In this document: positions 7,136-38,037 of the stretch, piece by piece | Layout: every line of letters begins with the position of its first letter | Position numbering within the stretch: position 1 is the first letter of the stretch | Assembly (NCBI GenBank): GCA_900768185.1 | Contig: CAAGCB010000012.1 | Location: forward strand, 15,461-79,460 | Direction: 5' to 3' | DNA from: Alphaproteobacteria bacterium | Lineage (GTDB): Bacteria; Pseudomonadota; Alphaproteobacteria; CAAGCB01; CAG-977 | DNA: 64,000 bases | Translations under genes and position numbers: made by a program | Notes under the pieces: generated by a model | Seen by the model: only the letters and a program-made list of their open reading frames with translations | Database searches by the model: none | What the model was told of the DNA's origin: nothing

Positions 7136-8545
7136 TTAAAATCTGAAATCCCGTTCGCCCGCGGCGATGTGGGTCAAGTGGTCTTGGCAGACATCGCGGA
7201 CTTTCGGATTTGTGATGTTGGCAAGCTCGCGCTTGATCAATTCTTCGCCGACTTTTTTGGTTTCGGGGGACGCGTAGTCTTCCAGATATTCTTTCAGCGT
7301 CATCAGCGCGTTCGGGTGGCAGCAGTTCAAAATCTGCTTTGATTTGCACAAATCCATAAACCTGTCGCCCGTGCGCCCCGCGCGATAACAAGCCGTGCAA
7401 AAACTGGGAATATACCCCATGTCCATCAGCCACTTGATCACTTCGTCCAGCGTGCGGGTGTCCGCGCGGTCGAATTGCGCCGTTTCGGTTTCGCGCACGA
7501 CATAGCCGCCGACCGACGTCGACGACGCGCCGCTGATTTGCGAAATGCCCAAATGCAACGCGCGTTCCCGCATCTTTTGGCTTTCGCGCGTGGAAATAAT
7601 CATGCCCGTGTACGGCGTCGAAACGCGAATGCAGGCAATAATCTTGGCAAAAATATCGTCGGGCAGGGCGTTTTTGAACGACGCGGGGTCGATGTCGTCA
7701 GCGGGGCAGATTCTCGGCACGGAAATCGTATGCGGTCCGACACCGTGGACGGCTTCCAAATGTTCGGCGTGCATCAGCTGACCGACAAATTCGTACGCGT
7801 AGTTTTCCAGCCCGTACAACACGCCCAATCCCACGTCGTCGATGCCGCCCTGCATGGCTCTGTCCATGGCTTCGGTATGGTAAGCGTAGTTGTGCTTGGG
7901 TCCCGTCGGGTGCAGTTTTTCATACGATTCCCTGTTGTACGTTTCTTGAAACAGAATGTACGTCCCGATGCCCGCTTCGTGCAGTTTTTTATAGTTTTCG
8001 ACCGTCGTCGCGGCGATATTGACGTTCACGCGGCGAATCGCGCCGTTTTTGTGCTTGATTGAATAAATGGTTTTAATGCTTTCCAAAATGTATTCAATCG
8101 GGTTGTTGACGGGGTCTTCGCCCGCTTCCAGCGCCAGACGCTTGTGTCCCATATCCTGCAAAGCGACGACTTCGGCGCGGATTTGCTCCTGCGTCAGCTT
8201 TTTGCGGGGGATATGCTTGTTTTTGATGTGATAAGGGCAGTACACGCACCCGTTCACGCAATAGTTCGACAGGTACAGCGGCGCGAACAAAACAATGCGG
8301 TTGCCGTAAAAGTCTTTTTTCAGCTGTTCGGCAAGCCCGAAGATTTCCGCGTTTTTTTCGGGAATTTCGCACAGCAGCAAAACGGCGGCTTCGCGGTGGG
8401 ACAATCCTTTCCACAATTTGGCTTTGGCGATGATTTCGTCAATCAGTTCAGCGTTGTTCGCGTTTTTGCGCGCGTATTCCAGCGTGTCCAGAATTTCGTC
8501 ATGGCTGATAAATTCTTCAGCCTTCATGGATTTTACGTCGTACAT
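7136..8545 (-). CDS. hydG: HydG-like radical SAM tyrosine lyase ([FeFe]-hydrogenase maturase family; ThiH-related)
   Basis: 469 aa; radical SAM CVNGCVYC motif; C-terminal auxiliary-cluster region FCTACYRAGRTG...LNCCHPNAL characteristic of HydG rather than ThiH or BioB. Confidence 0.65.
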   Translation of the reverse strand: MYDVKSMKAEEFISHDEILDTLEYARKNANNAELIDEIIAKAKLWKGLSHREAAVLLLCEIPEKNAEIFGLAEQLKKDFYGNRIVLFAPLYLSNYCVNGCVYCPYHIKNKHIPRKKLTQEQIRAEVVALQDMGHKRLALEAGEDPVNNPIEYILESIKTIYSIKHKNGAIRRVNVNIAATTVENYKKLHEAGIGTYILFQETYNRESYEKLHPTGPKHNYAYHTEAMDRAMQGGIDDVGLGVLYGLENYAYEFVGQLMHAEHLEAVHGVGPHTISVPRICPADDIDPASFKNALPDDIFAKIIACIRVSTPYTGMIISTRESQKMRERALHLGISQISGASSTSVGGYVVRETETAQFDRADTRTLDEVIKWLMDMGYIPSFCTACYRAGRTGDRFMDLCKSKQILNCCHPNALMTLKEYLEDYASPETKKVGEELIKRELANITNPKVRDVCQDHLTHIAAGERDFRF

Positions 8546-11907: not shown

Positions 11908-12723
11908 TCACACCAACAAGCTGAACAGTTTTGCGGCTGAAGACGCGTTGGAACGGTTGTTCAACGTCGCCATGTTGGTGTATCCCGCCGCCAGCAGGTT
12001 CGCCGCCCCTTGCGCCGCCAGCGTCCGACTGTTGACGGTCGATGTTCCCGAATACGACGACGAACTTTCGGCTTGCGCCCGACGCAATTCGGCTTCGGTG
12101 ATTTTGGTGTGGTCGACGGACGTTTCTTTGGTGACGTAGTTGTGCGTGTATTTGTCGCCGAGCTGTACCTGCAAAGCGTACAGCGTGTCTTCATCAACGG
12201 GTTTTCCGTCCTTGGTCGTCACATGAACGTAAAAAGTGCCGGCTTTCTGCACTTTGTATTCGCCGCGCATCAGTTGTTCGAACGCTTCGGTTTTCTTGCC
12301 CTGTCCGTCCTCGTTCGTGGCAACCAGCGTTTGACGATTTTGAACGTACTGGTAGATTTCGACCTTCAATCCCTGACCTTTGAACCGTTCAATCGCCTTT
12401 TCATAGTCTGAAACGGCGTTTTCCAATTCGTCGGACGCCGAAACGTCCTTTGTGTCGGTGGCGTTTTTTTCCTCTTGAATGGCGGACACGTTGACCGCGG
12501 TCAGGCGTAATTTTCCGCGCGATGTGACTTTGAACGAAAACCAATCGTCGGTTTCCCGTTTCGACAGGGTGGTGATCATGTTCAGACGCGAATAATTCAG
12601 CCGCGCCTGACCGATGTCGCGCGCCGTTTGAATCGTGTCGCCGTACAAATCGGACGTCGATTTTTCAAAAGATTTTATGTTCGTCGATGTCGAAGCCGCA
12701 TTCAGAACCGTCGTAGCCATCAT
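11908..12723 (-). CDS. Hypothetical protein (Ser/Thr-rich termini, no recognised domain)
   Basis: 271-aa ORF with good coding look in the central part; no motif recognised. Confidence 0.4.
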   Translation of the reverse strand: MMATTVLNAASTSTNIKSFEKSTSDLYGDTIQTARDIGQARLNYSRLNMITTLSKRETDDWFSFKVTSRGKLRLTAVNVSAIQEEKNATDTKDVSASDELENAVSDYEKAIERFKGQGLKVEIYQYVQNRQTLVATNEDGQGKKTEAFEQLMRGEYKVQKAGTFYVHVTTKDGKPVDEDTLYALQVQLGDKYTHNYVTKETSVDHTKITEAELRRAQAESSSSYSGTSTVNSRTLAAQGAANLLAAGYTNMATLNNRSNASSAAKLFSLLV

Positions 12724-12803
12724 TCACCTCTGCCGTCAAAGCGATGTCCGGAATTCTTCCGTTTCTTGAAATATAGCACGTTTATTCCGAAAAATAAAGA
12801 TTC

Positions 12804-14792
12804 TTAAAGTTCGGGCAAAACCTGCGACAGTTTCGTTTCGACAACCGGTTGTTCGGGAACGGCGTCCCGCGTTTTAGCGTCGGTCGCTTCCTCCGGTTTT
12901 TCGGTTGTGTTCCAAATAACCTCGTACAGTGTCTGCGGAGTGTTGACGCCCTTTAAATTGAAATCGCCCAGCGGTTTGAAAACGTAGTTTTTGCCCGCCG
13001 CCAATTCTTTGACGACCGAAGACACATAGATTTCGTCCTTGCCCGCTTCGTTGCAGACGCGCGCCGCGATTTGGACGGTCAATCCGAACAAATCGTTGTT
13101 TTCGACGATCGGTTCGCCCGCGTTCAATCCGATTCGCACAGCCAAAGGAACCGTCGGCAATTCGCTGTTGTACGCGCTGACGGATTTTTGAATCGCGACG
13201 GCGGCGTCGATCGCGTTCGACGCCCACTGGAACGACGCCATAATTCCGTCGCCCGTCTGTTTGATTTCTTCGCCTCCGCAAGTGTCGAGCGCCTGCCGCA
13301 CGATCGTGTTGTGGCGGTGAATCAGCTGTTGCGCCAATCGATCCCCCAGCGTTTGCGTCATTTGCGTCGACGAAACGATATCGGTGAACATGACAATGCA
13401 GACCCCCGACGAAACGGTTTCTTTTTTCGACGGATTCAGCCAGCCGCTCATCGTGCTTTGAATCAAGCCGATCAATTCCGGGGACGTTTTGTTGGTCATA
13501 TAAATCTGCATGCTTTTCGCGCCGCTGTCGATAACGGGCAGGTATTTCGATTCCAACATGTATTCGTCGATTTTATCGAAAAACAAAGCCGCCAGCGCCG
13601 GCGCGCGTCCCAGCAATTCCAAAACGCCCGAAAGCATCAGGCGGTTTTGCTGTTTCGTCAACGCCCGCGTTTTGCACAGCTGTTCGCACGCCCCCGCCAA
13701 AAACAGTTCAATCCCGAAACGGGCGTAGGTGTTCAGCAGCGTGTTTCTTTCCTGCAATACGCGCAGAACAAGTGATAGCAAAGAGGTCAGTTTCAGATAA
13801 TCTTTTTCCAATTCCGCGGGAATGACGGCGGCTTCGGCGGGCGGCGTCGATTCGCTTTCGTGCGCGTCGCCGGTTTCCGCGGGGGTTGCGGATTGATCCG
13901 CCGGTTCCGTTTCGGATTGATCCGCCGGTTCCGTTTCGGTTTCGGCGTCGGCTTCGTCGGCTTGCCGTTTGCGTTCGTCTTCGGCGGCTTTGTCGGCTTC
14001 TTCTTCGCGCTTGGCTTGTTCTTCCGCTTTCAGGCGGGCGTCTTCCAGACGTTGGGTCATGGTCTTTCTGCCCATCAGCAAATCCAGCGCGTCAAAGAAA
14101 CGGCGCACCAGATGCGACAGCCGCGTATCGGGCGTGTATTGGCGGTCTTCCGCCGTTTCGTAAAGCTCGCGCAAGACGGCGGAGGAAACGGCTTTGTCCG
14201 GATCGTTTTCCGTTTCGCCGGCGGAATCGGACACCGTTTTTATCGTCGCCGCGAATGAAATGTCGTCATTGGATCCCAGCAGGTTGTCCCAATTCACCCA
14301 TTTGATCGCCGTCGGAATGGAAATGACCAGAAAGAAGAACGTGAAAACGCCCAGAACCATCTGGTTTGTGATGTCTTGCGGCGTAAAGCCGGCGGTCAGC
14401 ATCAGCCGCAAAACCAGCGTCGTGACGACGGCGGACGCCATCATGGAAAACAGCACCGACAGGAAAATCATGATGACGCCTTCGGTGATCGAATTGGACG
14501 TCCGTTTTTTCTTTTTGGTTTTGTTGACGGTCGGAATCACGCTGTTTTGGTACGGCGACGATTTTCGGGGCTGAGGTTTCGGAATTTCGCTGAGGTAGAC
14601 CATCGCCTCTTGGAACATTTGGGTGTCCAGATTGTAGGTTTCGCGCACGACTTTGGTCGGTTTGCGTTCCGAATTTTCAATGCTTTTGGCGTATTCGGTC
14701 GCTTTCGCGCGCTGTTCGGACGGATAGCGCGCCAGCAAATCCCAAGCGCCGTTTTGATAGGCATAGACTTCGTAATGTACAATATCGGACAC
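12804..14792 (-). CDS. Membrane-anchored class III adenylate/guanylate cyclase
   Basis: C-terminal CHD domain with FTDIVSSTQ...GDGIMASF...RIGLNAGEPI motifs; N-terminal hydrophobic segments; acidic Glu/Ala-rich linker. Confidence 0.8.
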   Translation of the reverse strand: MSDIVHYEVYAYQNGAWDLLARYPSEQRAKATEYAKSIENSERKPTKVVRETYNLDTQMFQEAMVYLSEIPKPQPRKSSPYQNSVIPTVNKTKKKKRTSNSITEGVIMIFLSVLFSMMASAVVTTLVLRLMLTAGFTPQDITNQMVLGVFTFFFLVISIPTAIKWVNWDNLLGSNDDISFAATIKTVSDSAGETENDPDKAVSSAVLRELYETAEDRQYTPDTRLSHLVRRFFDALDLLMGRKTMTQRLEDARLKAEEQAKREEEADKAAEDERKRQADEADAETETEPADQSETEPADQSATPAETGDAHESESTPPAEAAVIPAELEKDYLKLTSLLSLVLRVLQERNTLLNTYARFGIELFLAGACEQLCKTRALTKQQNRLMLSGVLELLGRAPALAALFFDKIDEYMLESKYLPVIDSGAKSMQIYMTNKTSPELIGLIQSTMSGWLNPSKKETVSSGVCIVMFTDIVSSTQMTQTLGDRLAQQLIHRHNTIVRQALDTCGGEEIKQTGDGIMASFQWASNAIDAAVAIQKSVSAYNSELPTVPLAVRIGLNAGEPIVENNDLFGLTVQIAARVCNEAGKDEIYVSSVVKELAAGKNYVFKPLGDFNLKGVNTPQTLYEVIWNTTEKPEEATDAKTRDAVPEQPVVETKLSQVLPEL
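13889..13936. repeat. Perfect 2 x 24-bp tandem direct repeat inside the cyclase gene
   Basis: cggattgatccgccggttccgttt repeated twice in tandem; encodes ETEPADQS x2 in the minus-strand frame. Confidence 0.9.
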
Positions 14793-14931
14793 TTTTAAAC
14801 CTGCAAAAAAATTTATCCATATATTATAAAGGTTTCGACGGAAAAATCAGCAAAAAAATGAATCTGCGCGGCGCGTATAAAAAAACGACCGCCGATCCGG
14901 CAGCTGTTTTTTTTTTGAAACTTCGCAAAAA

Positions 14932-15156
14932 TCACTTCTTTTTCGTGAAAGCCGCGAAACGCTTGTTGAATTTCGCCAACTGACCGCCGCTGTCGACCAA
15001 ACGGTACACGCCCGTCCAAGCCGGATGAGCCAACGGGTCAATGTCCAAGCGAACCGTGTCGCCTTCTTTGCCCATTGTCGAACGCGTCTTGAATTCGGTT
15101 CCGTCTGTCATGACCACGGTGATTTCATGGTAGTTCGGATGGATATCTTTTTTCAT
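14932..15156 (-). CDS. rpmE: 50S ribosomal protein L31
   Basis: [22 protein letters not shown]...FNKRF matches L31; start taken at the second Met of the ORF. Confidence 0.9.
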
Positions 15157-15247
15157 AACTTCTGCTCCAGACAATGCAATAAGTTTCTTTTCTATACTCT
15201 AAAAGATTTGGCATTTCAAGCCTGTTTTCGCGAGAAACGGCAAAAAA

Positions 15248-16312
15248 TCAACGCTCGGTCAATTTGAATTCGATTCGGCGGTTTTTACGTCGCGCTTTTT
15301 CGGTGTCGGCGGGGTCGACGGGTTGAAATTCGCCGAAACCCGCCGCGACCAGACGACGCGCGGGGACGCCCCGTTCGATCAGGTACTGCACGACGGCGAT
15401 CGCGCGTTCGGCGGACAGCTGCCAGTTTGACGCGAAACGGGCGGCGTCTTTGACGGGGACGTTGTCGGTGTGACCGTCCACGCGCAGAACCCAAGGCACT
15501 TTGGCGGGGATTTTGCGGCGCAGTTCCTTGACCGTTTTCGCCAGAACGCGCAGTTGTTTTTTACCTTCGTCTTCCAGCGAAGCGGAACCGCTTTTGAAAA
15601 ACAGTTCGGATTGGAACACAAAGCGGTCGCCTTCGATTCGAAAATCGTCGCGGTCTTCCAAAACTTTGCGTAATGTTCCGAAAAATTCGGAACGGTAAGA
15701 CGCCAGTTCGCCCGCTTTCGCCGCCAAAGCGCGGTTCAGGCGTTTTCCCAGATCGGCGATTTGCGCGCGCTGTTTTTTATCCGTGCGGTCGGCTTTATCC
15801 AGCAAAGCCCCCAGTTTGGCAAGCTCTTTGGTCAGTTTTTCCGTTTGCGTCGTCAACAGGGCGATGTGGGCTTTGGCTTCCTGAGAAATCTTGCGCTCGC
15901 TTTTCAGCGCTTTTTCTTTGGACGCCGTTTCCTTTTCCAGTTCGTCGCGGCGCAAGGTCAGCGCCTTGATGTCCTGTTCCAGCAGGGCGATTTGCGCCAG
16001 CGTGCGGGTTTGTTCGGCTTTGACGCCGGTCAGTTCCGCCTCCAACCGCGCGGCTTCGTCCGTTTGCAGCGTCAGCCGGCGGGTCAGATCCCGCGTCGCG
16101 TCGCGTTCGGCGGACAGTTCCGCCGTCAAATCGTTCAAATGCTCCGTCAGCACGTCGATTTCCGCGTTTTTCGTGTCGAGATTCCGCCCCATGAAAAAGT
16201 GCGCCATCACGAACAGCAACAGGAAAAACAACACCACGATCAGCAACGTCGACAACGCGTCGACGAAACTGGGCCAGAAATTGTAGCCGCCCGACTGCCT
16301 GAACCGCCGCAT
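15248..16312 (-). CDS. MotB-like protein: N-terminal TM helix, ~180-aa coiled coil, C-terminal OmpA-like peptidoglycan-binding domain
   Basis: TM FWPSFVDALSTLLIVVLFFLLLF; heptad-rich central region; OmpA-like LRVDGHTDNVPV...NWQLSAERAIAVVQYL...NRRIEF. Confidence 0.65.
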   Translation of the reverse strand: MRRFRQSGGYNFWPSFVDALSTLLIVVLFFLLLFVMAHFFMGRNLDTKNAEIDVLTEHLNDLTAELSAERDATRDLTRRLTLQTDEAARLEAELTGVKAEQTRTLAQIALLEQDIKALTLRRDELEKETASKEKALKSERKISQEAKAHIALLTTQTEKLTKELAKLGALLDKADRTDKKQRAQIADLGKRLNRALAAKAGELASYRSEFFGTLRKVLEDRDDFRIEGDRFVFQSELFFKSGSASLEDEGKKQLRVLAKTVKELRRKIPAKVPWVLRVDGHTDNVPVKDAARFASNWQLSAERAIAVVQYLIERGVPARRLVAAGFGEFQPVDPADTEKARRKNRRIEFKLTER

Positions 16313-16313
16313 T

Positions 16314-17303
16314 TTACTTGTCCTGTCCCGATATGGTGCGAATCAGCAGCTTGAACGAATCGCGGACTTCGCGCAACAGGATTTCCTGACGCGCTTCGCT
16401 GCGTTTGTCTATTTGGTTGACGTTGTGATCGATTCGGCTGATAAAGCGTAAAATGTCCAAATCGGTTTGCGCGCTTTCCTGCGATTTCGCTTCATTCTTT
16501 TGCAGCTGGGAACGGATGTCGGACAGGCTTTCGACCACCTGTTCCAGCAAGGCGTTGGCATAGGCGGCGTTTGACGTGACCGTTTCGTCCGACTGGTTCC
16601 CGACCGCGGACGAATAGCGGGTCAGTGAAGCCAGATGTTCGTCCAAGCCGTTGTAAAAATTATTCTGCGCGCGTCCTGCCTGCAAATCCAAAAAGCCGAC
16701 GATCAACGCCCCCGACAACCCCAGCAGGGACGATGAAAACGCCGTTCCCATGCCCGACAGCGGCAGTTCCAGCGATGTTTTGATCGTGTTGAAAGCTTGC
16801 GTGGCTTCCTCGCCCGACACGTTCAGGGATTTGATTACGGTCGCGACGGCGCCGACGGTTTCCATCAGCCCCCAAAACGTCCCCAGCAATCCCAGAAAAG
16901 TCGACAATCCGATCAGGTATTTCGAAATGTCGCGGCTTTCCTCCAAACGCATTTCGACGGAATCCAAAATCGTGCGCGCGATGGTCGGGGAAAGGACGGC
17001 GTTTCCCTTGGCGCGGTTGTTTTTCAAAACCAAAGCCAGCGGAGACAACAGGCGCAATTTCTGCAACGCGGCGTCGTCCAAAGACAGGGCGGGGGCTTTC
17101 AGCCATTTGATTTCGCGGTACAAAGCGAAAACGGAATGGAAATTCAGTCCGACGCCGAACAGGAATACCAGCGCAATCAAACTGTTCAGGGCGGGATTGG
17201 TCAAAAAGGCATTCGACAGGACGGGAAACAAAACCGCGCCCGCGCCCGCGACCAGAATCAGAAACAAAAACATGCGCGTCACATAACGGTTCGGCAGTTC
17301 CAT
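16314..17303 (-). CDS. MotA/TolQ/ExbB proton-channel family protein
   Basis: Multiple TM helices; family signature LIGLSTFLGLLGTFWGLMETVG; 2-nt gap to the MotB-like gene. Confidence 0.7.
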   Translation of the reverse strand: MELPNRYVTRMFLFLILVAGAGAVLFPVLSNAFLTNPALNSLIALVFLFGVGLNFHSVFALYREIKWLKAPALSLDDAALQKLRLLSPLALVLKNNRAKGNAVLSPTIARTILDSVEMRLEESRDISKYLIGLSTFLGLLGTFWGLMETVGAVATVIKSLNVSGEEATQAFNTIKTSLELPLSGMGTAFSSSLLGLSGALIVGFLDLQAGRAQNNFYNGLDEHLASLTRYSSAVGNQSDETVTSNAAYANALLEQVVESLSDIRSQLQKNEAKSQESAQTDLDILRFISRIDHNVNQIDKRSEARQEILLREVRDSFKLLIRTISGQDK

Positions 17304-17318
17304 TTTTTTAAATCCTTG

Positions 17319-18485
17319 TCAGTCTTTGATTAAAACGTCCGTTCTGTCCGGACAGGACGCGCCCGCGCCGCGATTGCCGAACGCCCTGATTTCGACGCGC
17401 ATGGATTTGACGCCCCGGCGCATCAGATAGGAACGGATCGCCAGCGCGCGCCGCAGGGCGTGCCGACGTTCGGCGCCCCGTTCGTTTGACGCGTAAGCGT
17501 ACAAAAACACGCGGGACTTGTTTTTAACGGCTTGCGCCGCCGTCAAATCCAACGCGTTTCGCGCTTCGGGCGTCAGTTCGGACGATTTCGGTTCATGAAC
17601 AAAAACCCATTGCAGTTTTTTGCCTTGCGCGACGGCGGTCGCCGTCGGCGAATCGAACGGAACGACGCTTGTCAGCAGGGCGTTTCTGTCTTCCGCCGAC
17701 GGATCGGGGGACGCCGGCAAAACGGTCGGCGCCGCCGTTTTCTTGGCGGTTTCGGTTTCCGGCGTTTCGGAAACGGAAGCGGCTTTCGATTTCGCAACCG
17801 CGTTGTTATCGGCGGATTCCGATTTTTCAAAGGTTTTTAACGCTTCCGCCAAATCCGCCAGCGTTTGTTTCGGCGTGTCCGTTTTTTTCTGTTCTTTCGC
17901 GACCGTCCGGACGGGGGCGGCGACGGCGGTCGGCCGGACGGGGGACGGAGCTTTGGCGGCGGGTTTGGGTTTGGCGGCGGCAATCGCCTTTTTCGCCGTT
18001 TCCTTTTTCTTTTCGGCGATTTCGGCGCGTTCCGCCTGTTCCAGAAAATGTTTCGACAGTTTCAGTTCTGCCGCCGGAGTTTTATTCAGCGCTTCCGCCG
18101 CCGGTTTAACCGTGGTGTCCACCGCCAGAATTTTGACTTGCGGAACGGGCTTCGCGCGCGGCTTCAGCTTGTCGTGTTCGTCTTTGACGGCGGCTTCGCG
18201 CACCTGATAGCCTTTGGCTTTCGGCGGCTTGGCGGATTTGTTTTGCTTTTGAGGGGGGCGGGATTGCTTCGCCGATTTTTTTTTCGTCGGCTCGGCTTTT
18301 TTTACGGCGGGATCGATCAACGCCGCCGCGCTGTTTTTTTTCACGTTCCGATCTGACGAAATGGTGTCTTTGGGAATGAAATCCTCGGTTAAAACGTCCA
18401 GATCAACCGTGACCTGAGCAAAAGCCGCCCGTGCCGTCAAAAACGCGACGGCAGAGAACAGGGCTGCTTTTGCTCGTAAATTCAA
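17319..18485 (-). CDS. Secreted Ala/Lys/Pro-rich protein with degenerate C-terminal OmpA-like region
   Basis: Probable TTG start at 18485 preceded by GGAGG (ORF track gives an ATG at 18536 that overlaps suhB); signal peptide AALFSAVAFLTARAAFAQV; low-complexity AKP-rich linker; C-terminal RALAIRSYLMRRGV resembles an OmpA-C motif. Confidence 0.45.
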   Translation of the reverse strand: MNLRAKAALFSAVAFLTARAAFAQVTVDLDVLTEDFIPKDTISSDRNVKKNSAAALIDPAVKKAEPTKKKSAKQSRPPQKQNKSAKPPKAKGYQVREAAVKDEHDKLKPRAKPVPQVKILAVDTTVKPAAEALNKTPAAELKLSKHFLEQAERAEIAEKKKETAKKAIAAAKPKPAAKAPSPVRPTAVAAPVRTVAKEQKKTDTPKQTLADLAEALKTFEKSESADNNAVAKSKAASVSETPETETAKKTAAPTVLPASPDPSAEDRNALLTSVVPFDSPTATAVAQGKKLQWVFVHEPKSSELTPEARNALDLTAAQAVKNKSRVFLYAYASNERGAERRHALRRALAIRSYLMRRGVKSMRVEIRAFGNRGAGASCPDRTDVLIKD

Positions 18486-18498
18486 GGGGCTGCCTCCT

Positions 18499-19617
18499 TT
18501 ACTCCTTTGCGGGGGCGGGGGAAAGCGTTCTTTCAAACTGTTTGAACGCGTCCGATTCTTCGGGAAGCGTCAACATCTTTTTGAACGGCGTGAACAGCTG
18601 GTCGTTCGACGCGATAATCGTTCCCGCGTTCACGATGCCGACCGAATCTTCTTTACCGTCATAGGTGCAGACGCGTCCGCCCGCCTCTTTGACGATCAAC
18701 TGACCCGCGGCGACGTCCCAAGGTTTGATGTCTTCTTCGAAATAGCATTCGAAGCGACCCGCGGCGACGTAAGCCAAATCCAGCGATGCGGCGCCCATGC
18801 GGCGAACGCCCGCCGTTTTCTGCATCATCGGCATCAGCTGGCGTACGAAACGGTCGGGATTGGAATGTCCCAAATGCGGGATTCCCGTCACGACGACGGC
18901 TTCGTTCATCGTGTTGCGGTTTGAAACGTGAATGCGACGGGAACCCGACGCCGTCATCGCCCATGCGCCGCCGCCGCGTTCCGCGTAGAACAAATCGCCC
19001 GTGACGGGGTTGAAAATGACGCCCGCGACGATGTCGTTGTCTTCCTGCAAAGCCAGAGAAATCGCAAAGTGCGGAACGGCGTGCAAAAAGTTGCTGGTGC
19101 CGTCCAGCGGATCGATAATCCAGCGGTGGGACGTGTCCTCACCCGCTTTGACGCCGCTTTCCTCTTGCAAAAAACCGTAGCGGGGGCGGACTTTCAGCAA
19201 ATATTCGCGCAACGTCTTTTCAGAGTTCAAATCGGCGGTCGACGCGAAATCGGCGGCGCCTTTTTTCGAAATTTGCAGTTGTTCCAGTTCGCCGAAGTCG
19301 CGCACCAAACCGCGCCCCGCTTTCTGCACCGCCTGAATCATGACGTTCAAGGTCGGCGACAGCGACGAAATGAATTTGTCCTGACGCGATTCGCGAAACT
19401 GTTCCACGGGATCGGGACGGTTGCGGACGGGGAACGCCGATTGTTGCAGTCCCGCCGCCTGTTCGGATTTCCGCTGCAACAATTCCATCGCGCGGGTTTT
19501 GATTTCCGATTTGCGCTGGAACGTTTTGCGTTCGGTCGAAAGTTCCTCCGCGACGGCGCGGCGCACGGTCGTCCGTCTGAACGACGGACGCGGCGGTTTA
19601 ATGGTTGATTTGGGCAT
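18499..19617 (-). CDS. suhB: Inositol monophosphatase family protein (SuhB-like)
   Basis: IMPase motifs WIIDPLDGTSNFLHAVP and metal-binding region; true start is probably the internal Met at 19491, since the first ~40 residues are basic and atypical. Confidence 0.75.
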   Translation of the reverse strand: MPKSTIKPPRPSFRRTTVRRAVAEELSTERKTFQRKSEIKTRAMELLQRKSEQAAGLQQSAFPVRNRPDPVEQFRESRQDKFISSLSPTLNVMIQAVQKAGRGLVRDFGELEQLQISKKGAADFASTADLNSEKTLREYLLKVRPRYGFLQEESGVKAGEDTSHRWIIDPLDGTSNFLHAVPHFAISLALQEDNDIVAGVIFNPVTGDLFYAERGGGAWAMTASGSRRIHVSNRNTMNEAVVVTGIPHLGHSNPDRFVRQLMPMMQKTAGVRRMGAASLDLAYVAAGRFECYFEEDIKPWDVAAGQLIVKEAGGRVCTYDGKEDSVGIVNAGTIIASNDQLFTPFKKMLTLPEESDAFKQFERTLSPAPAKE

Positions 19618-19641
19618 GTCGGACGCTTTCCTTCAAGTCAA

Positions 19642-20205
19642 TCATTTCGCGCGTTCGACATAGGTGTTGTCGATCGTGGAAACGACAATCTTGTCGCCGG
19701 CGGCGACGAACGGAGGCACGCCGATGCGCAGACCGTTGTCCAGAACGGCGGGCTTGTAGGACGAGGAAACCGTCTGTCCCTTGATCACGGGTTCGGTTTC
19801 GACGACCGTCTGTACGACCTTGGCGGGCAGTTCGATGCCGACGGGGCGTCCTTCGATGAATTCGACGACGACTTCCATGTTGTCCTGCAGATAAGCGGCG
19901 CGATCGCCCAGCATTTCTTTGGAAATCGTGAATTGGTCGTAGGTGTCGACCATCATGAACGTGTAGTCCGTTCCGTCGGAATACAGGTACTGGCAATCAC
20001 GGTCTTCGCTCATCAGTTTTTCGACGAAGTCGGCGGTGCGCCAGCGTTGTTCGGTTTTGACGCCCGTGGCGACGTCGCGCATTTTAACCTGAATGGTGGC
20101 GTTTCCCTTGCCGGGAATGACCAGTTCGTAGTCGATCACGACGCACGGTTTGCCGTTGTATTCGATGACCCAACCCGGACGGATTTGGTTAGCTTGCATT
20201 TTCAT
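19642..20205 (-). CDS. efp: Elongation factor P
   Basis: 187 aa; KOW-like N-domain with the modification loop VIPGKGNA carrying the conserved Lys. Confidence 0.9.
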   Translation of the reverse strand: MKMQANQIRPGWVIEYNGKPCVVIDYELVIPGKGNATIQVKMRDVATGVKTEQRWRTADFVEKLMSEDRDCQYLYSDGTDYTFMMVDTYDQFTISKEMLGDRAAYLQDNMEVVVEFIEGRPVGIELPAKVVQTVVETEPVIKGQTVSSSYKPAVLDNGLRIGVPPFVAAGDKIVVSTIDNTYVERAK

Positions 20206-20310
20206 GAGTTTTTTCCTTGTATATTAAAAGAAAGCCAATAGAATTTAAGCCGAAAATTAACAGATTAGCTTTCTGAACGCAAGAGTTCTGCGCTAAAAAA
20301 TATCGGGAGA

Positions 20311-21366
20311 ATGTTTATGAACAACCGGATTCCTTTTTGGCACCCCGCGGAATACGCCCGCCGACTGCCTGTTTTGAAACGGCGCGCGGCGATAATCGAC
20401 GCGATTCGCCGCTTTTTCACCGAACGGGATTTTTTAGAGGTCGAAACCCCGATTTTGCAGATTTCCCCCGGACTGGAACCGCATTTAAAAGCGTTCAAAA
20501 CCGAATTGGTCGAACCGTTCGGACAGGCGGATCGCGACATGTATCTGCACACGTCGCCGGAATTCACCATGAAAAAGCTGCTGGCGGCGGGACTGCCCAA
20601 AATTTTTCAGATGGCGCGCGTTTTCAGAAACGAAGAACGGTCCAAACGCCACCACCCCGAATTTATCATGCTGGAATGGTATCGGGCGGGCGCCGACTAT
20701 ACGGTTTTGATGGACGATACCGTCGAACTGGTGCGGGCTTGCACGCGGGCGGGCGGCGCCGAAGTCCTGAAGGACGGCGATTTGGAAGTCGACCCGTTCA
20801 AAGAATGGAATCGGATTTCGGTCGCCGAAGCCTGCCGCGAATACGCGGGATTCGATTTGGAATCGACCCTGCCCGACGAACCGACGTTGGAACCCGATCC
20901 GAAGCCGCTGGCGAAAGTCGCCGAAAATATGGGGATTCGGGTTTCTTCCGACGACCGTTGGGACGACATTTATTTTCGCATCGCTTTTGAAAAAATCGAA
21001 CCGAATCTGGGACGCGGCGTTCCGACGATTTTGTACGACTATCCCGTGTGCATGGCGGCTCTGTCCCGTAAAAAGCCGACCGATCCCCGATTCGCGGAAC
21101 GGTTCGAAGTGTATGTCGGCGACACCGAGCTGGGCAACGCGTTTTCCGAATTGACCGACGCGGCGGAACAACGCCGGCGGTTCGAATACGATATGGATTT
21201 GAAAGAAAAGCTTTACGGCGAACGCTATCCGATTGACGACGATTTCATCAACGCCGTCGCCGCGATGCCCGAAGCCGCGGGGATCGCAATCGGCGTCGAT
21301 CGTTTGGTCATGCTGGTCGCGGGGGTGACGCGAATCGAAGACGCGATGTGGGCGCCCGTCGCATGA
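20311..21366 (+). CDS. epmA: EF-P lysine beta-lysyltransferase EpmA (PoxA/GenX, truncated class II LysRS paralog)
   Basis: Class II aaRS core motifs (FRNEE..., GLGIDRL-like GIAIGVDRLVML), ~350 aa with no anticodon-binding domain; divergent from efp. Confidence 0.75.
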   Translation: MFMNNRIPFWHPAEYARRLPVLKRRAAIIDAIRRFFTERDFLEVETPILQISPGLEPHLKAFKTELVEPFGQADRDMYLHTSPEFTMKKLLAAGLPKIFQMARVFRNEERSKRHHPEFIMLEWYRAGADYTVLMDDTVELVRACTRAGGAEVLKDGDLEVDPFKEWNRISVAEACREYAGFDLESTLPDEPTLEPDPKPLAKVAENMGIRVSSDDRWDDIYFRIAFEKIEPNLGRGVPTILYDYPVCMAALSRKKPTDPRFAERFEVYVGDTELGNAFSELTDAAEQRRRFEYDMDLKEKLYGERYPIDDDFINAVAAMPEAAGIAIGVDRLVMLVAGVTRIEDAMWAPVA

Positions 21367-21833
21367 TTTTTTTCAAAAGGCTGTTTTTTCGGGGCGTGTC
21401 GATCGCCGCTAAAGTCACGGGACTGTCCGAACAATTCGTTTCGTTCCTGATTATGGGCGGCGTGAACACGGTGTTTTATTACGCGCTGTATTCCTTGCTG
21501 ATTTACGCCGGACTGCATTACGCGGCGGCGGTCGCGATCGCGACCGTTTGCGGCGTTTTGTTCAATTTTCAGACGTTCGGGCGCGTCGTGTTCAAAAATT
21601 TTCAAACCCGTCTGCTGGGACGGTTCGCCGCCGTCTACGCCGTCGTGTATCTGGCAAACGTCGCGGGGCTGGCGGCGTTGGAACGGGTCGGGCTTGCCGA
21701 CAAATATCTGGCGGGCGCTGTTTTGGTTTTGCCCGTGGCGATGCTGGGATACGTCCTGAACAGGACGTTCGTGTTTAACCGCCCAGCGGCTTCACGCGAA
21801 AATCAGCCGCGTCCGACGGATCCGACAAATTAA
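21363..21833 (+). CDS. GtrA-family small membrane protein
   Basis: Four hydrophobic helices; GtrA-like FVSFLIMGGVNTVFYYALYSLL; 4-nt ATGA overlap with epmA. Confidence 0.6.
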   Translation: MIFFKRLFFRGVSIAAKVTGLSEQFVSFLIMGGVNTVFYYALYSLLIYAGLHYAAAVAIATVCGVLFNFQTFGRVVFKNFQTRLLGRFAAVYAVVYLANVAGLAALERVGLADKYLAGAVLVLPVAMLGYVLNRTFVFNRPAASRENQPRPTDPTN

Positions 21834-22287
21834 AGTCGACGCAGGGGACGTTGAACAGTTCCGCCCACCATTCGGTCAGCTCTCCGGCGTTTTCGCCGTC
21901 GAATCCGATATAGTCGGCGCCCGCTTCGCCCGCGCGCATCGCTTCGTCGCGGGTGGCGCATACGACGCCCAGCGCGATATCGCCGATTTTCGACCGGATT
22001 TTTTTTATATCGGGGCGAAAGTCGATTTGCACGCCGTCCGCCGCGATTTTTAACGCGGCTTCGATATCGTTTTTGACGATGAAAGCGACGTTTTCCGCCT
22101 GAACCGCCGCCGCGAATTTCCGCAGTTCGTCTTCGGTCATGCCCGTCCCGTCGCACAGCAAAGCGTCGGGGCGTTCGGCTTTTTCACCGGCGAAAGCGGC
22201 GATCGGATCGGTTGTTTCGGCGCTGCATGTCAAATAAAGTCCCTGTTTCATCGCGTGTCCTTTCAAATCGGCAATATTATACGTCAA
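21775..22287 (-). CDS. Thiamine-phosphate synthase (ThiE/TenI) superfamily protein
   Basis: TIM-barrel phosphate-binding pattern FIVKNDIEAAL...ADYIGFD; start may be the second Met at 22251. Confidence 0.45.
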   Translation of the reverse strand: MTYNIADLKGHAMKQGLYLTCSAETTDPIAAFAGEKAERPDALLCDGTGMTEDELRKFAAAVQAENVAFIVKNDIEAALKIAADGVQIDFRPDIKKIRSKIGDIALGVVCATRDEAMRAGEAGADYIGFDGENAGELTEWWAELFNVPCVDFNLSDPSDAADFRVKPLGG

Positions 22288-28105: not shown

Positions 28106-28762
28106 ATGACCTTACGCCTCTCGTCCGGTGCCGGTTCCAAGAAGGAAGGCACGGAACAACTTGTAGAAAAGTATTTAAAAGACGTCGTTTCCGAAATGCA
28201 CTGCGTCGACGCCGTGACGCGCCATTTCGGCAAAGCCCCCAACCGCTCCGTCGAAGAATACGTGGCAAACGTGTATATGAAAAAACGCCCGTTGAAGGTC
28301 GCCGATAAAACGGCGGCGTTGTTGGCGGTGCGCGAAGCCGAAAGACACTATCGCGGCAAAATTAAAAAAATCCCTCTGCACACCCGTCTGCATTACATGA
28401 CGGGAAACGTCGGCAAAAAGAAAATCGAAGCCGCGATCGTTTGCGGCATCAGTCTGGCGGCGGGGTGCGTCGCCGTGGCGCGCGGGGCTGATCCGGCGGT
28501 CGTTCCGGCGATTCTGGCTGTCGCGGGCGGAACGCTGATGGCTGCGGACTACGCGTTGTATTCGCTGGAACCGAAAAAACACGGCGCCGAAATCCTGCGC
28601 AAAAAGGAAGTGCTGGCGAATTACACGCGCGCGAAACAGGCTCTGTTCGTTTTAAAGGCGATGGAAAAACAACTGACCGCGCGCGGCGGACAGCCGAAAA
28701 ACAAAGCGGCGGACGATGACGGTTTTACTTTTCTTATGTCAAAAAAAGGCGCGGCGCGCTGA
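28106..28762 (+). CDS. Island family A paralog 1: small membrane protein with bilobed hydrophobic segment (unknown function)
   Basis: 218 aa; ~115-aa N-terminal soluble domain, Gly/Ala-rich two-lobe hydrophobic region (residues ~115-160), basic amphipathic tail KQALFVLKAMEKQL shared with paralogs 2-5. Confidence 0.55.
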   Translation: MTLRLSSGAGSKKEGTEQLVEKYLKDVVSEMHCVDAVTRHFGKAPNRSVEEYVANVYMKKRPLKVADKTAALLAVREAERHYRGKIKKIPLHTRLHYMTGNVGKKKIEAAIVCGISLAAGCVAVARGADPAVVPAILAVAGGTLMAADYALYSLEPKKHGAEILRKKEVLANYTRAKQALFVLKAMEKQLTARGGQPKNKAADDDGFTFLMSKKGAAR

Positions 28763-28781
28763 AAAAAAACGGGGGATTGCG

Positions 28782-29435
28782 ATGGCTTTGACGATTTTAA
28801 CGGCTGAAAACGGTCGTCACGAAGACACGGCGAAACTGGTTCGCGACTATTTAAAGGGCGCGATCAAAGTGATGCGCCGCATCGACGCCGCCCGCAATTT
28901 TTACGACAAACCCGCCAATCGCCGCGTCGAACGGGTGGAGGCTTTGCGTTATATGGTCAAAAATCCGTTTTGTGTCAACGATACCGAACGGGCGGGCGAA
29001 ATGCTTGACGACGCTCAAAGATACTATGAGAAGCAAACCAAGGACGCGCCGTTGAAAGTCAAAATGGATTACGCGTTCGGTTGTGTCGGCGCGATGCTGT
29101 TGAAAGACACGTTACTGTACGGGGCGGCGCTGGCGGCGGGCGTGACGGCGGCGGCGATGAACGGCGGTTCGCCCGAATTGATTTGCGGGGCGGCGGTCGC
29201 GGCGGTCGGCATCGCGGGGGTGACGCAAATCGGCGTCGCGATGGGCAAAATGTCGCGTCCGCCGACCAAGGCGGAACGGAAACACCCCGAAACGCTGGAA
29301 CAATACACGGAAGCCAAACAGGCGCTGTTCGTTTTGAAACAAATGAAAAAACAGCTGGCGTCGTCCGTGAAAAACAACAGGGGCAAAGGCGGAAACGTCG
29401 TTGTCCCGATGCCTAACAGGTGCGTCCTTCGCTGA
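28782..29435 (+). CDS. Island family A paralog 2
   Basis: 217 aa from ATG 28782; same architecture; tail KQALFVLKQMKKQL. Confidence 0.55.
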   Translation: MALTILTAENGRHEDTAKLVRDYLKGAIKVMRRIDAARNFYDKPANRRVERVEALRYMVKNPFCVNDTERAGEMLDDAQRYYEKQTKDAPLKVKMDYAFGCVGAMLLKDTLLYGAALAAGVTAAAMNGGSPELICGAAVAAVGIAGVTQIGVAMGKMSRPPTKAERKHPETLEQYTEAKQALFVLKQMKKQLASSVKNNRGKGGNVVVPMPNRCVLR

Positions 29436-29457
29436 TTTTTACGCGAATTAAAAAAAA

Positions 29458-29495
29458 ATCGCTCGACCGATCGGGCGCGGTGTTTCTTTTTTTAC
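29458..29495 (+). terminator. Weak terminator-like element after paralog 2
   Basis: Self-complementary CCGATCGG core followed by tgtttcttttttt. Confidence 0.3.
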
Positions 29496-29574
29496 CGCCT
29501 TTAATAAAAAAAATGTTGGAAAACTGGACAAATAAAGGTATATGCTTTGTCAAGCGGGCGGAAAGGGGGTAAAA

Positions 29575-30156
29575 ATGTCTTTGACAATCGACAATCACCA
29601 AAAAACGACGGGCTTGGACGCGAAAACGGCGGAGGTCGTGGCGGCGTATGTGAACGGGCTGTATTATGCGACAAACGGCGTTCCCCGTGATTTGCGCGAC
29701 GCCGCTGCGGACGCCTATATGAAAGACAATCCGCTGAAAGTCGACGATAAAGCCGCCGCCGTGAAAGAAATCGACGCTTTGACGCGTGAATGCGAAGACG
29801 AAGCGAAGTCGGCATCGTGGCGAACCAAACTGCAATACGAATACGGTCGCAAGGGCGAACGAATCGCCAAACTGGCGATGTTGGGCGCGGCGACCGCCGT
29901 CGGAAGCGTTCTGGCGGCAAACGGCATGCCTTTGGCTTCCTCTTCCGTTTTGTTCGCGGGGCTGGTCGCCATTCAGGGAGGAAACACTCCGACGGATAGG
30001 GAAAAAGCCGATATCGAAAGATACGGCGTAATCAAGCACGGACAGTTCGTTTTGAAAAAAATGAAGCGGGCGCTGACGTCCGAAGATGACAAAGAAAACG
30101 CGTCCGCGGTCAAACGCAAAACCGTGCTGAATTTGAAACGAAACGGCGGACGCTGA
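29575..30156 (+). CDS. Island family A paralog 3
   Basis: 193 aa from ATG 29575 (RBS GGGGG); NGVPR motif in N-domain shared with paralogs 4 and 5; tail GQFVLKKMKRAL; ends NLKRNGGR. Confidence 0.6.
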   Translation: MSLTIDNHQKTTGLDAKTAEVVAAYVNGLYYATNGVPRDLRDAAADAYMKDNPLKVDDKAAAVKEIDALTRECEDEAKSASWRTKLQYEYGRKGERIAKLAMLGAATAVGSVLAANGMPLASSSVLFAGLVAIQGGNTPTDREKADIERYGVIKHGQFVLKKMKRALTSEDDKENASAVKRKTVLNLKRNGGR

Positions 30157-30180
30157 TTTCCGGTCGCCCCTTGGATTTTT

Positions 30181-30220
30181 ACGCCGCGGCATTTGGTGTC
30201 GCGGCGTTTCGCTTTTTTAG
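30181..30220 (+). terminator. Rho-independent terminator after paralog 3
   Basis: ACGCCGCG / CGCGGCGT 8-bp stem with 11-nt loop, followed by ttcgctttttt. Confidence 0.55.
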
Positions 30221-30310
30221 GGCGAAAGCGCGGTTTTCAATAAAAAATATTTGAAGAGTTGGACAAATCGTGTTAATCTTTTTGTCAAACAGACAGGAAA
30301 GGATAAGCAA

Positions 30311-30934
30311 ATGTCTTTGGTTCTCAATTCCGAAAAGGGTATGACGCTGAACGATGTTAAAACGACGATGAAAGTCGCGGCGTATCTCGGCGGCTTGGCG
30401 GAGCAAATCAACGGCGTTCCCCGTCGGTATCGCGACAGCGTCGCCGACGCCTATATGGAAGACCACCCGTTGACAGTCGACGATAAAGCCGCGGCTTACG
30501 ATCTGGTCGGAAAAATGGAAAAGCAATACAAAAAGGAAACCAAATCCGCGTCTTTGGATACGAAGCTGCAATATATGTTCGGCAACAAGGGCGCCGAAGT
30601 CGCCAAAGCGGTCGCTTTGGGCGCGGCGGCGGTCGTCGGCAGCGTGATGGCGGCGCAGGGCGTCGATCAGGCGGCGGCTCCCGCGTTCGTGATGGCGGCG
30701 GGCGCGCTTTGCACGGGGGCGCACGCGGCGACGGTGAACGACAAATATCAGACGAACGCCGTTGAAAAATACGGTGAAGCCAAACGCGCTTTGTTCGCTT
30801 TGAAAAAAATGAAAAAGGCGCTGGCGCCCGAATCGACGTACAAACAGGACGTTCAGGCACTGTACGCGTCCGGTCTGGGCAATCCCGGCGGCATGATCAC
30901 CGCGTTGAATCTGAAACAAAAAGGCGGCAGATAA
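30311..30934 (+). CDS. Island family A paralog 4
   Basis: 207 aa from ATG 30311 (RBS AGGAAAGGA); ends NLKQKGGR. Confidence 0.6.
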   Translation: MSLVLNSEKGMTLNDVKTTMKVAAYLGGLAEQINGVPRRYRDSVADAYMEDHPLTVDDKAAAYDLVGKMEKQYKKETKSASLDTKLQYMFGNKGAEVAKAVALGAAAVVGSVMAAQGVDQAAAPAFVMAAGALCTGAHAATVNDKYQTNAVEKYGEAKRALFALKKMKKALAPESTYKQDVQALYASGLGNPGGMITALNLKQKGGR

Positions 30935-30952
30935 GCCGGAAAAGGAGGAAAT

Positions 30953-31618: not shown

Positions 31619-31648
31619 TTCATCTGCGGTGCAAGGCAAGGTGTTGTG

Positions 31649-32776: not shown

Positions 32777-32788
32777 GGAGATAAATTC

Positions 32789-34371: not shown

Positions 34372-34433
34372 TCTGTTAATGAATATGGGTTAAACTCCCC
34401 GTCAAAACTGTAATTTTGAAGGGGAGTTTTTCT

Positions 34434-35171: not shown

Positions 35172-35173
35172 CC

Positions 35174-35641: not shown

Positions 35642-35644
35642 TCC

Positions 35645-36616: not shown

Positions 36617-36617
36617 T

Positions 36618-37946: not shown

Positions 37947-38037
37947 AAAACCGCGAAAAAACAGTTGCGAAACCTTGCGATTTTATTTACATTCAATCAC
38001 AGAGGAATCAATTCACCTTTGTTTAGGAGCATTTTTA

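Follow-up and report, generated by a model that had tools for sequence, protein, structure and literature searches.

A conserved MotAB/ZorAB-like gene pair with a long periplasmic stalk in Alphaproteobacteria: a candidate ion-driven envelope complex

Ion-driven motors built from five A and two B subunits (5:2 motors) are known from flagella, gliding, the Ton/Tol systems and Zorya, and each new use found for them has brought new biology. Flagellar stators are defined by a cytoplasmic torque interface of 4-5 helices (PMC12505986). In Zorya, ZorA has three hydrophobic helices and a tail of ~500 amino acids (aa), whilst the ZorB domain joins the transmembrane (TM) helix without a linker (PMC11946911). 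Here we consider three tightly packed genes on the minus strand of a 64,000-nucleotide (nt) stretch of alphaproteobacterial DNA (contig CAAGCB010000012.1 of assembly GCA_900768185.1; hereafter the window), which encode a secreted Ala/Lys/Pro-rich protein (g1), a channel-forming subunit of the MotA/TolQ/ExbB/ZorA superfamily (A) and a protein that combines a MotB-type TM helix, a long coiled coil and a MotB-type peptidoglycan-binding domain (B). On balance we lean towards the reading that A and B, encoded on the chromosome and passed on vertically, assemble into an ion-driven complex akin to MotAB and ZorAB, likely with A5B2 stoichiometry and anchored to the wall, which does a housekeeping job in the cell envelope. 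The sequences are already catalogued, A by Pfam and B by NCBIfam (PRK09039); in the literature searched, which covered few subscription journals, no paper was found that treats A-B as a system or assigns it a function.

Gene boundaries in the window were taken from a list of open reading frames (ORFs) and by direct reading of the sequence, alongside public gene calls from four independent assemblies with an identical B protein. A (16314-17303, minus strand; 329 aa in the public calls) runs from an ATG at 17303 to a TAA at 16316-16314, and after 1 nt the ATG of B follows at 16312, with the B stop at 15250-15248 (B, 15248-16312, minus strand; 354 aa). B lies directly 3' of A in all of the 80 related genome loci in which the sequence extends far enough, and in gamma- and betaproteobacterial loci (Dokdonella, Chiayiivirga, Denitromonas) the pair stands alone, without efp-suhB. 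Because of the 1-nt gap and this adjacency in all loci, even where efp-suhB is missing, A and B appear from their gene order to be functionally coupled. The family is large: more than 8000 clusters of A homologues at 90% identity were found, nearly all labelled ones being from Alphaproteobacteria, and among 1.84 billion representatives at 50% identity A is matched by 925 at E<1e-30 and 2293 at E<1e-10. The order efp-suhB-(g1)-A-B-(rpmE) recurs across several alphaproteobacterial orders, Sinorhizobium meliloti included, with efp-suhB upstream and rpmE downstream at Rhodospirillales, Acetobacteraceae, Defluviicoccus, Kordiimonas, Devosia, Roseibium and Rhodomicrobium loci. As this synteny recurs across orders, A-B would be a vertically inherited chromosomal pair in a housekeeping context and not part of a defence island. 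No phage records carrying the pair were found; those retrieved share generic OmpA domains only, and a phage-borne element was rejected on that ground. A further conserved partner between B and rpmE was likewise ruled out, since in other lineages only unrelated insertions, an MFS transporter or an ABC exporter, occupy that interval. The first-pass annotation of the window had presented g1, A and B as one module; A-B stands as a conserved pair, but g1, which roughly half of lineages have, is an accessory, and the trio is therefore not a conserved unit.

By its modelled fold A falls in the A-subunit class of 5:2 motors. It had first been placed in the TolQ/ExbB/MotA family on account of its GLLGTFWGL motif, a placement that holds: Pfam MotA_ExbB (PF01618) is matched at residues 109-156, marginally, with 24.5 bits vs a cut-off of 22.9 (two homologues, P0075 and P0107, lie just under it at 19.8 and 22.0 bits), and the motif is invariant in 63 homologues. 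The AlphaFold model is all-helical (pLDDT 74, pTM 0.48), and the top 50 PDB matches obtained with Foldseek are all TolQ, ExbB or ZorA chains (probability 0.98-1.0); a profile search against PDB sequences gave no match to a solved structure, only coiled-coil noise. Four hydrophobic helices (11-29, 42-60, ~130-152 and ~185-207) precede a ~35-residue loop, after which comes a helix at 244-326. The third and fourth, joined by a periplasmic loop, form the channel hairpin (16683-16916, minus strand), in which TM3 (~130-152) carries FLGLLGTFWGL with the invariant T142 and TM4 (~185-207) reads MGTAFSSSLLGL...GFLDLQ; no other part of A could be aligned with TolQ of the window or with the profiles for Pfam MotA_ExbB, tolQ, exbB and MotA1. 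Invariant across the 63 homologues are F136-L146 (FLGLLGTFWGL), much of M185-L196, G203, F204, D206, Q208, Y248 and A251-E254, as is the MGTAFS motif. Between TM2 and TM3 lies a cytoplasmic loop of ~70 residues (61-129), modelled with short helices at 77-81 and 87-98 and the start of a helix at 106. The C-terminal cytoplasmic helical tail (residues 244-326; 16326-16574, minus strand; pLDDT 79-88) would measure ~12 nm as one helix; within it Y248, A251-Q255 and T323 are invariant, and the tails of Rhodospirillales homologues exceed it by ~50-60 residues. Certain A-family proteins (P0241, P0243, P0273, P0279, P0331) are 557-614 aa long and match the profile in 3-5 stretches, which suggests repeated or extended C-terminal tails; the tail length of A, like the stalk length of B, varies within the family.

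The nearest described family to A in sequence appears to be ZorA. PADLOC profiles for ZorA3 (7e-15) and ZorA1 (8e-14) give partial matches of 45-52 bits over residues 123-324, ZorA1 reaching residue 324, and when 15 members of the A family were compared with NCBIfam, ZorA_4 matched 14 (best 4e-6) and ZorA_2 13, with TolQ matching nine (best 0.0098), MotA1 four and ExbB three. Measured against curated cut-offs, A scores 20 bits vs 500 for ZorA_4 and 12 vs 100 for ZorA_2, and it reaches 13.2 vs 303.8 for the MotA equivalog (TIGR03818), 13.8 vs 221 for tolQ (TIGR02796) and 12.5 vs 206 for exbB; because these scores lie so far under the cut-offs, A is not a member of the ZorA, TolQ, MotA or ExbB families.

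These matches bear on two other explanations of the locus. Public annotations name A 'flagellar motor protein MotA' and B 'peptidoglycan-binding protein' or 'chemotaxis protein MotB', and would make of the two genes an ordinary flagellar or gliding stator pair misplaced in the genome. The four hydrophobic helices of A are indeed like those of MotA, and the wall domain of B is nearest to those of MotB, MotS and PomB; yet only four of the 15 family members match the MotA model at all (E<1), A itself scores far under the TIGR03818 cut-off given above, its TM2-TM3 loop has no 4-5-helix torque interface (PMC12505986), B has neither plug nor flexible linker, and in S. meliloti motA (SMc03022) is found separately, in the flagellar cluster. 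No flagellar genes were found in the 64-kb window, which is the part of the source genome seen, nor in synteny tests of the 80 related loci. A flagellar stator was rejected on these grounds, in agreement with the non-flagellar assignment made at first, and a misplaced stator pair is to our minds extremely unlikely.

The second explanation is that the pair acts as a Zorya-like sensor without nucleases, in which an envelope perturbation (phage, stress) would set the A tail rotating and so signal to a cytoplasmic effector with its gene close by or elsewhere, for example the membrane adenylate/guanylate-cyclase-like protein encoded at 12804-14792, 3' of rpmE in many loci. That ZorA profiles are the most consistent matches of A, with ZorB profiles matching both ends of B, bears out the Zorya-like resemblance noticed in the first-pass annotation; the A tail is conserved and helical, with repeated tail stretches in the members of 557-614 aa, and the cyclase gene, with weak PycC-type matches, recurs downstream in at least nine loci. 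Set against this are scores of 20 bits vs cut-offs of 100-500, an A tail of ~120 aa vs ~500 aa in ZorA (PMC11946911), a 177-residue stalk in B vs the linker-less ZorB, and synteny with efp, suhB and rpmE that indicates vertical inheritance; moreover, rpmE separates the cyclase from B, the cyclase is missing at the Sinorhizobium locus, and no PADLOC profile for ZorC, ZorD, ZorE, ZorF or ZorG matched g1 or any of the nine flanking ORFs. Zorya defence as such was rejected because the locus lacks these effectors and has a short tail, a linker, inherited synteny and scores far under the cut-offs, and we hold a nuclease-free sensor to be quite unlikely.

Over its full length B belongs to NCBIfam NF006543 (PRK09039.1-2; E 6e-116, 388.1 bits vs 305, residues 2-354 on positions 6-350 of 350), and the earlier statement that the family was not identifiable is thereby corrected. 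Its N-terminus matches the ZorB1 profile over residues 2-108 (E 7e-5, PADLOC), and a single TM segment (23-41) was found. The search for a conserved channel Asp in this region, which the first-pass annotation had proposed, led to Asp18 in WPSFVD (codon GAC, 16259-16261, minus strand), the predicted proton-carrying residue; W13, P14, F16, V17 and D18 are invariant in 46 homologues. In the AlphaFold model a single helix extends from 15 to 218 and is followed by an OmpA fold, so that a coiled coil does stand in place of the usual linker, as had been supposed. This periplasmic coiled coil (residues 42-218, ~177 aa; 15659-16189, minus strand) contains no Pro, keeps a constant heptad register from 41 to ~180 and, at ~0.15 nm for each of its 177 residues, would reach ~26 nm. 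The lengths of B homologues step by 7 residues (353, 346, 339, 332), which fits what a canonical coiled coil predicts, and across the family proteins measure 312-462 aa, with stalks of ~140 to >400 residues and a model, NF006542, of 627 positions.

The peptidoglycan-binding OmpA/MotB domain of B occupies residues 225-354 (15251-15640, minus strand; Pfam OmpA 3e-19). Its best profile match in the PDB is MotB (6ysf, 1e-24), MotY chains also being among the matches, whilst its best Foldseek matches are MotS, MotB and PomB. In OmpA and Pal structures the Asp of GHTD and the Asn and Arg of N..LS..RA contact diaminopimelate and are needed for peptidoglycan binding. The need for these residues is supported by ZorB mutants (PMC11946911). 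In B the corresponding D279-G-H-T-D283 and S295-N-W-x-L-S-x-x-R303 are invariant in the 46 homologues, and the domain is a predicted binder whose wall anchor looks to be in working order.

The stalk bears on a further reading, in which A-B would be an energised wall tether and a second Tol-like system, with B uniting the Asp of TolR, the span of TolA domain II and the wall binding of Pal; proton flow would extend, retract or reposition the stalk and so hold the inner membrane in line with the wall and perhaps with the outer membrane. A stalk of ~26 nm suits a periplasm-spanning element more than a short anchor, given that the inner membrane-to-wall distance in Escherichia coli is ~9 nm (PMC11946911), and the Ala/Lys-rich composition of g1 is TolA-like, the family is as conserved and chromosomal as Tol-Pal, and Foldseek places TolQ chains first. 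However, stalks that range from ~140 to >400 residues among homologues (NF006542, 312-462 aa) speak against a ruler of set length, no partner in the outer membrane was identified, and the conserved A tail suggests a cytoplasmic output. A Tol-Pal operon is present elsewhere in the window at 33958-38493 (ybgC 33958-34371, tolQ at 34416, tolR at 35174, tolA at 35645, tolB at 36618 and pal at 37975), as had been pointed out; hhalign aligned A with its TolQ over just 24 columns, around GLLGTxWG, and found no match between B and its TolR (probability 0.2%). With A at 13.8 vs 221 bits for tolQ and B being MotB-type, not TolR/ExbD-like, the initial assertions that the locus is not Tol-Pal and has no ExbD/TolR-type partner were sustained, and a Tol-Pal/Ton assignment was rejected. 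The tether seems to us possible, if unlikely, and the housekeeping MotAB/ZorAB-type complex is preferred to it.

A tractable view of the pair is offered by S. meliloti, where the order is suhB, A (368 aa), B (342 aa), an ABC gene and rpmE, without g1. B of strain 1021 is CAC47355/Q92JX6, annotated 'hypothetical protein signal peptide'. Published assignments place thiE2 at SMc03996, RgsF at SMc03995 and suhB at SMc03994, and from this gene order A would be SMc03993 and B SMc03992. A DNA fragment bound by ChvI in an in vitro screen lies inside SMc03993 (PMC3687685), which provides a lead for an envelope role. The locus was compared in strain Ak57 (L081, CP090106.1, 2758-8060: thiE2, SMc03995, suhB, A, B); this replicon is labelled 'plasmid pSymB' in PLSDB, yet at 3.7 Mb and with rpmE, purE and suhB it looks like a chromosome. 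RgsF (SMc03995), two genes upstream of A, is an essential factor for polar growth and septation. Identity of the trio with RgsB, RgsC and RgsD was rejected, these being unrelated periplasmic, M15-peptidase and peptidoglycan-binding proteins (PMC7327166), and SMc04042 was rejected as the neighbouring suhB, being a different paralogue, a histidinol-phosphate phosphatase beside pldB and ilvD2.

The A5B2 stoichiometry that we infer for the pair draws on the established mechanism of MotAB, ExbBD, TolQR and ZorAB (PMC9389320; PMC11946911). Protons would enter from the periplasm and reach the cytoplasm by way of Asp18 in the TM helix of B, along a path lined by TM3 and TM4 of A (T142, T187, S190-S192). 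The B dimer would be held on the wall by its MotB-type domain, which tips a two-stranded coiled coil of ~26 nm; this coiled coil continues the TM helix and takes the place both of the plug and linker of MotB and of the direct, linker-less join in ZorB. While B stays put, the flow of protons would turn the A ring; of the two, B most likely stands still and the A ring moves, because the tip of B keeps every peptidoglycan-binding residue. The output would be the small cytoplasmic part of A, that is, the ~70-residue loop and the conserved helical tail of ~12 nm, and the role would be a housekeeping envelope function (wall-membrane coupling or the sensing of envelope state) rather than flagellar rotation, Tol-Pal action or phage defence. 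Alphaproteobacteria are not known to have Braun's lipoprotein.

The assignment of the moving part could also be reversed, as in GldLM, with a static A ring and a B dimer whose coiled-coil shaft rotates in the periplasm and drives something at or beyond the wall. A helix that runs unbroken from the membrane as far as residue 218 and includes no flexible linker would transmit rotation in the manner of the GldM rod, an analogy taken from a review of 5:2 motors (PMC9389320), and the stalk exceeds the membrane-to-wall gap; but a MotB-type tip with all canonical peptidoglycan-binding residues invariant marks a fixed element, and no linked gene for an outer-membrane track or cargo was found, so a rotating B is in our estimation very unlikely.

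Several points weigh against the wall-anchored A5B2 complex that we prefer. The 5:2 stoichiometry is an extrapolation, and the model of A, with its pLDDT of 74 and pTM of 0.48, gives TM-scores of 0.3-0.58 to known motors (target-normalised best 0.58) and Foldseek E-values of 1.6e-3 or weaker, in the range of 1e-3 to 1e-2. A straight B stalk of 26 nm is ~3 times the ~9 nm from membrane to wall in E. coli (PMC11946911), and because the stalk is too long, and its length varies across the family, a simple perpendicular anchor geometry is left unexplained; the stalk might be tilted like a leash, pass through the wall or span the periplasm as in Tol. A long two-stranded coiled coil may also serve poorly as an anchor against torque. 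No partner of the A tail in the cytoplasm was identified, and the genes of the B-rpmE interval in other lineages are unrelated transporters; the ChvI-bound fragment lies within a gene and was obtained by screening in vitro; and the literature search yielded no experimental evidence on any family member.

The third protein of the locus, g1 (17319-18485, minus strand; 388 aa), was first described as secreted, Ala/Lys/Pro-rich and ending in a degenerate OmpA-like tail, and the composition, Pfam match and lost residues agree with that description. A signal peptide-like sequence (MNLRAKAALFSAVAFLTARAAFA|Q) is read at residues 1-23 (18417-18485, minus strand), with cleavage predicted at AFA|Q, and no TM segment that could serve as a membrane anchor was found at the Kyte-Doolittle threshold. 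The ~270 N-terminal residues of the mature protein contain 17.5% A, 15.7% K and 9.6% P. A homologue at a related locus (L001) aligns over the full length and has in common with g1 the short blocks QVTVDLDVLTEDFIPKD (right after the signal peptide), HDxLKPRAKPVPxVK and LSKxFLEQ; its identity to g1 is ~35-41%, while that of A is 70% and that of B 61%, from which it follows that g1 evolves much faster than A and B. Among strains with identical B (L082-L085), g1 differs by point changes, and one strain has a 9-residue in-frame deletion (VRPTAVAAP) inside a short direct repeat of the Ala/Pro-rich region.

The divergent C-terminal OmpA-like domain of g1 (residues ~290-388; 17322-17618, minus strand), delimited by alignment with the window's Pal and the B domain, matches Pfam OmpA over the last ~90 residues (45.1 bits vs a cut-off of 27.2, E 1.4e-11, profile positions 3-83 of 98). 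In the alignment GHTD has become AYAS and N..LS..RA has become RRHALRRA, so that the Asp and the Asn are gone and the Arg of RA is kept; such replacements (Arg or Glu for Asn) recur in 34 homologous upstream genes. Because the canonical Asp and Asn are lost, wall binding of the canonical kind by g1 is doubtful. A g1-type OmpA domain is encoded upstream of A in 34 of 75 related loci (~45%) and is absent from the Roseibium, Devosia, Kordiimonas and Sinorhizobium loci; g1 is thus a lineage-specific accessory, present in about half of lineages. A search for homologues with its C-terminal domain gave no matches. As its OmpA-like domain is without the canonical binding residues, the wall is a less likely target for g1 than B or another partner, and g1 may be a periplasmic accessory that docks on one of these, in the manner of MotY and MotC of flagellar stators.

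Around the trio, the junctions agree in full with those first described, including the gaps of 15 and 1 nt, the GGAGG, the TTG at 18485 and the position of the suhB stop. The features first described for the three proteins are backed by profile E-values and invariant columns and do not reflect chance similarity. The suhB-like gene of the inositol-monophosphatase family (18499-19617, minus strand; Pfam Inositol_P 1e-57), directly upstream of g1 and a conserved neighbour in most alphaproteobacterial loci, ends with a TAA at 18501-18499, which is followed by AAGGAGG and the TTG start of g1 at 18485; the longest-ORF list extends g1 to a TTG at 18536 inside suhB, whilst the public calls give the 388-aa form from 18485. 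The g1 stop (TGA, 17321-17319) is separated by 15 nt from the A start. Since the suhB stop sits just before the g1 ribosome-binding site, suhB is probably co-transcribed with g1-A-B. No convincing terminator between suhB and B was found in a terminator scan, which overall was no richer in sites than shuffled sequence (18 vs 14.1 expected); the first good minus-strand candidate downstream of suhB-g1-A-B is a terminator-like hairpin with a T-run after rpmE (14888-14904, minus strand; 7 pairs, 5 GC, tail CGTTTTTTTA), a match to the consensus only. A TTGAAA-17-TATAGA element in the 73-nt gap upstream of rpmE, read by eye and not flagged by the scanner, could be rpmE's own promoter. The conserved neighbour rpmE itself (L31; 14932-15174, minus strand) is called publicly in a shorter 74-aa form, and on the other side efp (19642-20205, minus strand) is a conserved neighbour by tblastn synteny and by the EFP domains that Pfam finds in public gene calls. 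No Rfam families were found within 12000-22000.

The suhB-like ORF is 372 aa long, with its inositol-monophosphatase domain from residue ~86 and homologues that align only from residues 63-90; its basic N-terminal extension may be genuine, or may stem from a misassigned start codon. Its scores are under the curated cut-offs of both SuhB (186 vs 332) and HisN (161 vs 275), and assignment of the enzyme to either would be tentative. Downstream, the cyclase-like membrane protein (12804-14792, minus strand; 662 aa) has a class III nucleotide cyclase domain (Pfam Guanylate_cyc 3e-14), with weak PycC matches, as well as a conserved N-terminal cytoplasmic domain, two TM helices and an acidic region of low complexity; lying 3' of rpmE in at least nine related loci, though not at that of Sinorhizobium, it is part of a conserved gene order. 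Beyond it, a 271-aa ORF (11908-12723, minus strand) without Pfam, NCBIfam or PADLOC match keeps its position in near-identical assemblies (270-271 aa).

The window as a whole is core genome, with rnd, kdsD, lptCAB, rpoN, hydG, epmA, yebC, ruvAB, ybgC-tolQRAB-pal-cpoB, tilS, ftsH, glmM, serC, lysK and dinG. Between ruvB and ybgC-tolQRAB-pal lies a tandem array of unannotated paralogues (28106-33961, plus strand) of lower GC content (0.52-0.54) and strongly positive AT skew. Five of ~205-240 aa (28106-28762, 28716-29435, 29542-30156, 30251-30934 and 30953-31618) have a hydrophobic GAAAVVGSV-like segment and a K.ALF.LK.MKK.L motif, and two of ~380 aa (31646-32776 and 32789-33961) have HExxH-like motifs (LIHEGEHA and LVHEGKHS); no NCBIfam match was found in the six members scanned, 32789-33961 lying outside the scan. 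A second small OmpA-like lipoprotein (38589-39017, plus strand; 142 aa), with a signal peptide ending in Cys and a canonical GYADPRGT..N..LG..RA motif, is encoded between pal and cpoB/ybgF. The presence of HydG, an [FeFe]-hydrogenase maturase (7136-8545, minus strand; 911 bits), and of a class I lysyl-tRNA synthetase (54717-56309, minus strand), together with a closest genome that is a metagenome-assembled genome from the human gut, suggests that the source is an anaerobic, gut-associated alphaproteobacterium.

Taken one step further, the preferred reading leads to a tentative and rather unlikely proposal, that the Zorya sensor motor has a housekeeping relative in Alphaproteobacteria and in some Gamma- and Betaproteobacteria, namely a proton-driven A5B2 rotor whose stator would reach the wall through a heptad-stepped coiled coil of ~26 nm and variable length, and whose short cytoplasmic tail would report or act on envelope state. 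If true, this would add a fourth physiological role to those of 5:2 motors, beside motility, Ton/Tol transport and integrity, and phage defence, and the family might be the lineage from which ZorAB was recruited. The pair is a testable candidate for an unrecognised envelope function in tractable organisms such as S. meliloti.

When A-B is set beside the described systems, each of them is found to share a part of it. In existing catalogues B is NF006543/PRK09039 'peptidoglycan-binding protein' (sub-models NF006542-NF006546), a name without a function, in which the pairing with a ZorA-like A is not reflected. With the TolQR-TolA-Pal and ExbBD-TonB systems the locus has in common the fold of A, ranked first against TolQ and ExbB, the GLLGTxWG motif, conserved, chromosomal and envelope-related genes, long periplasmic elements and, in g1, an Ala/Lys-rich protein; it differs in having no membrane-anchored partner of the TolA/TonB type, the signal peptide of g1 being cleavable. 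The likeness of g1 to MotY and MotC, one of architecture and not of compared sequences, lies in a secreted protein with an OmpA-like C-terminus whose gene stands beside that of a wall-binding B subunit; g1 differs in lacking the canonical Asp and Asn, in being mostly a low-complexity linker with short conserved motifs and in being missing from about half of lineages. The flagellar MotAB, PomAB and MotPS pairs resemble A-B in two adjacent, translationally coupled genes, a WxxFxD-type TM motif and a MotB/MotS/PomB-like domain in B, and four hydrophobic helices in A, but A has in place of the torque domain a loop of ~70 residues with short helices, and B an unbroken helix in place of plug and flexible linker. 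ZorAB (E. coli ZorA5B2, PDB 8QYD) provides the best profile matches for A and for both ends of B, the fold of A matching 8qyd, 8qyk and 8vvn; a TM Asp with a peptidoglycan-binding domain in B and a C-terminal cytoplasmic helical tail in A are further likenesses, whereas the A tail is ~120 aa vs ~500 aa, the hydrophobic helices number four vs three, a coiled coil of 177 residues in B stands where ZorB is linker-less, ZorC/D/E/F/G are lacking, and the context is one of housekeeping genes and vertical inheritance. The architecture of A-B, a stalk several times the membrane-to-wall gap together with a short ZorA-like tail, is that of none of the characterised systems.

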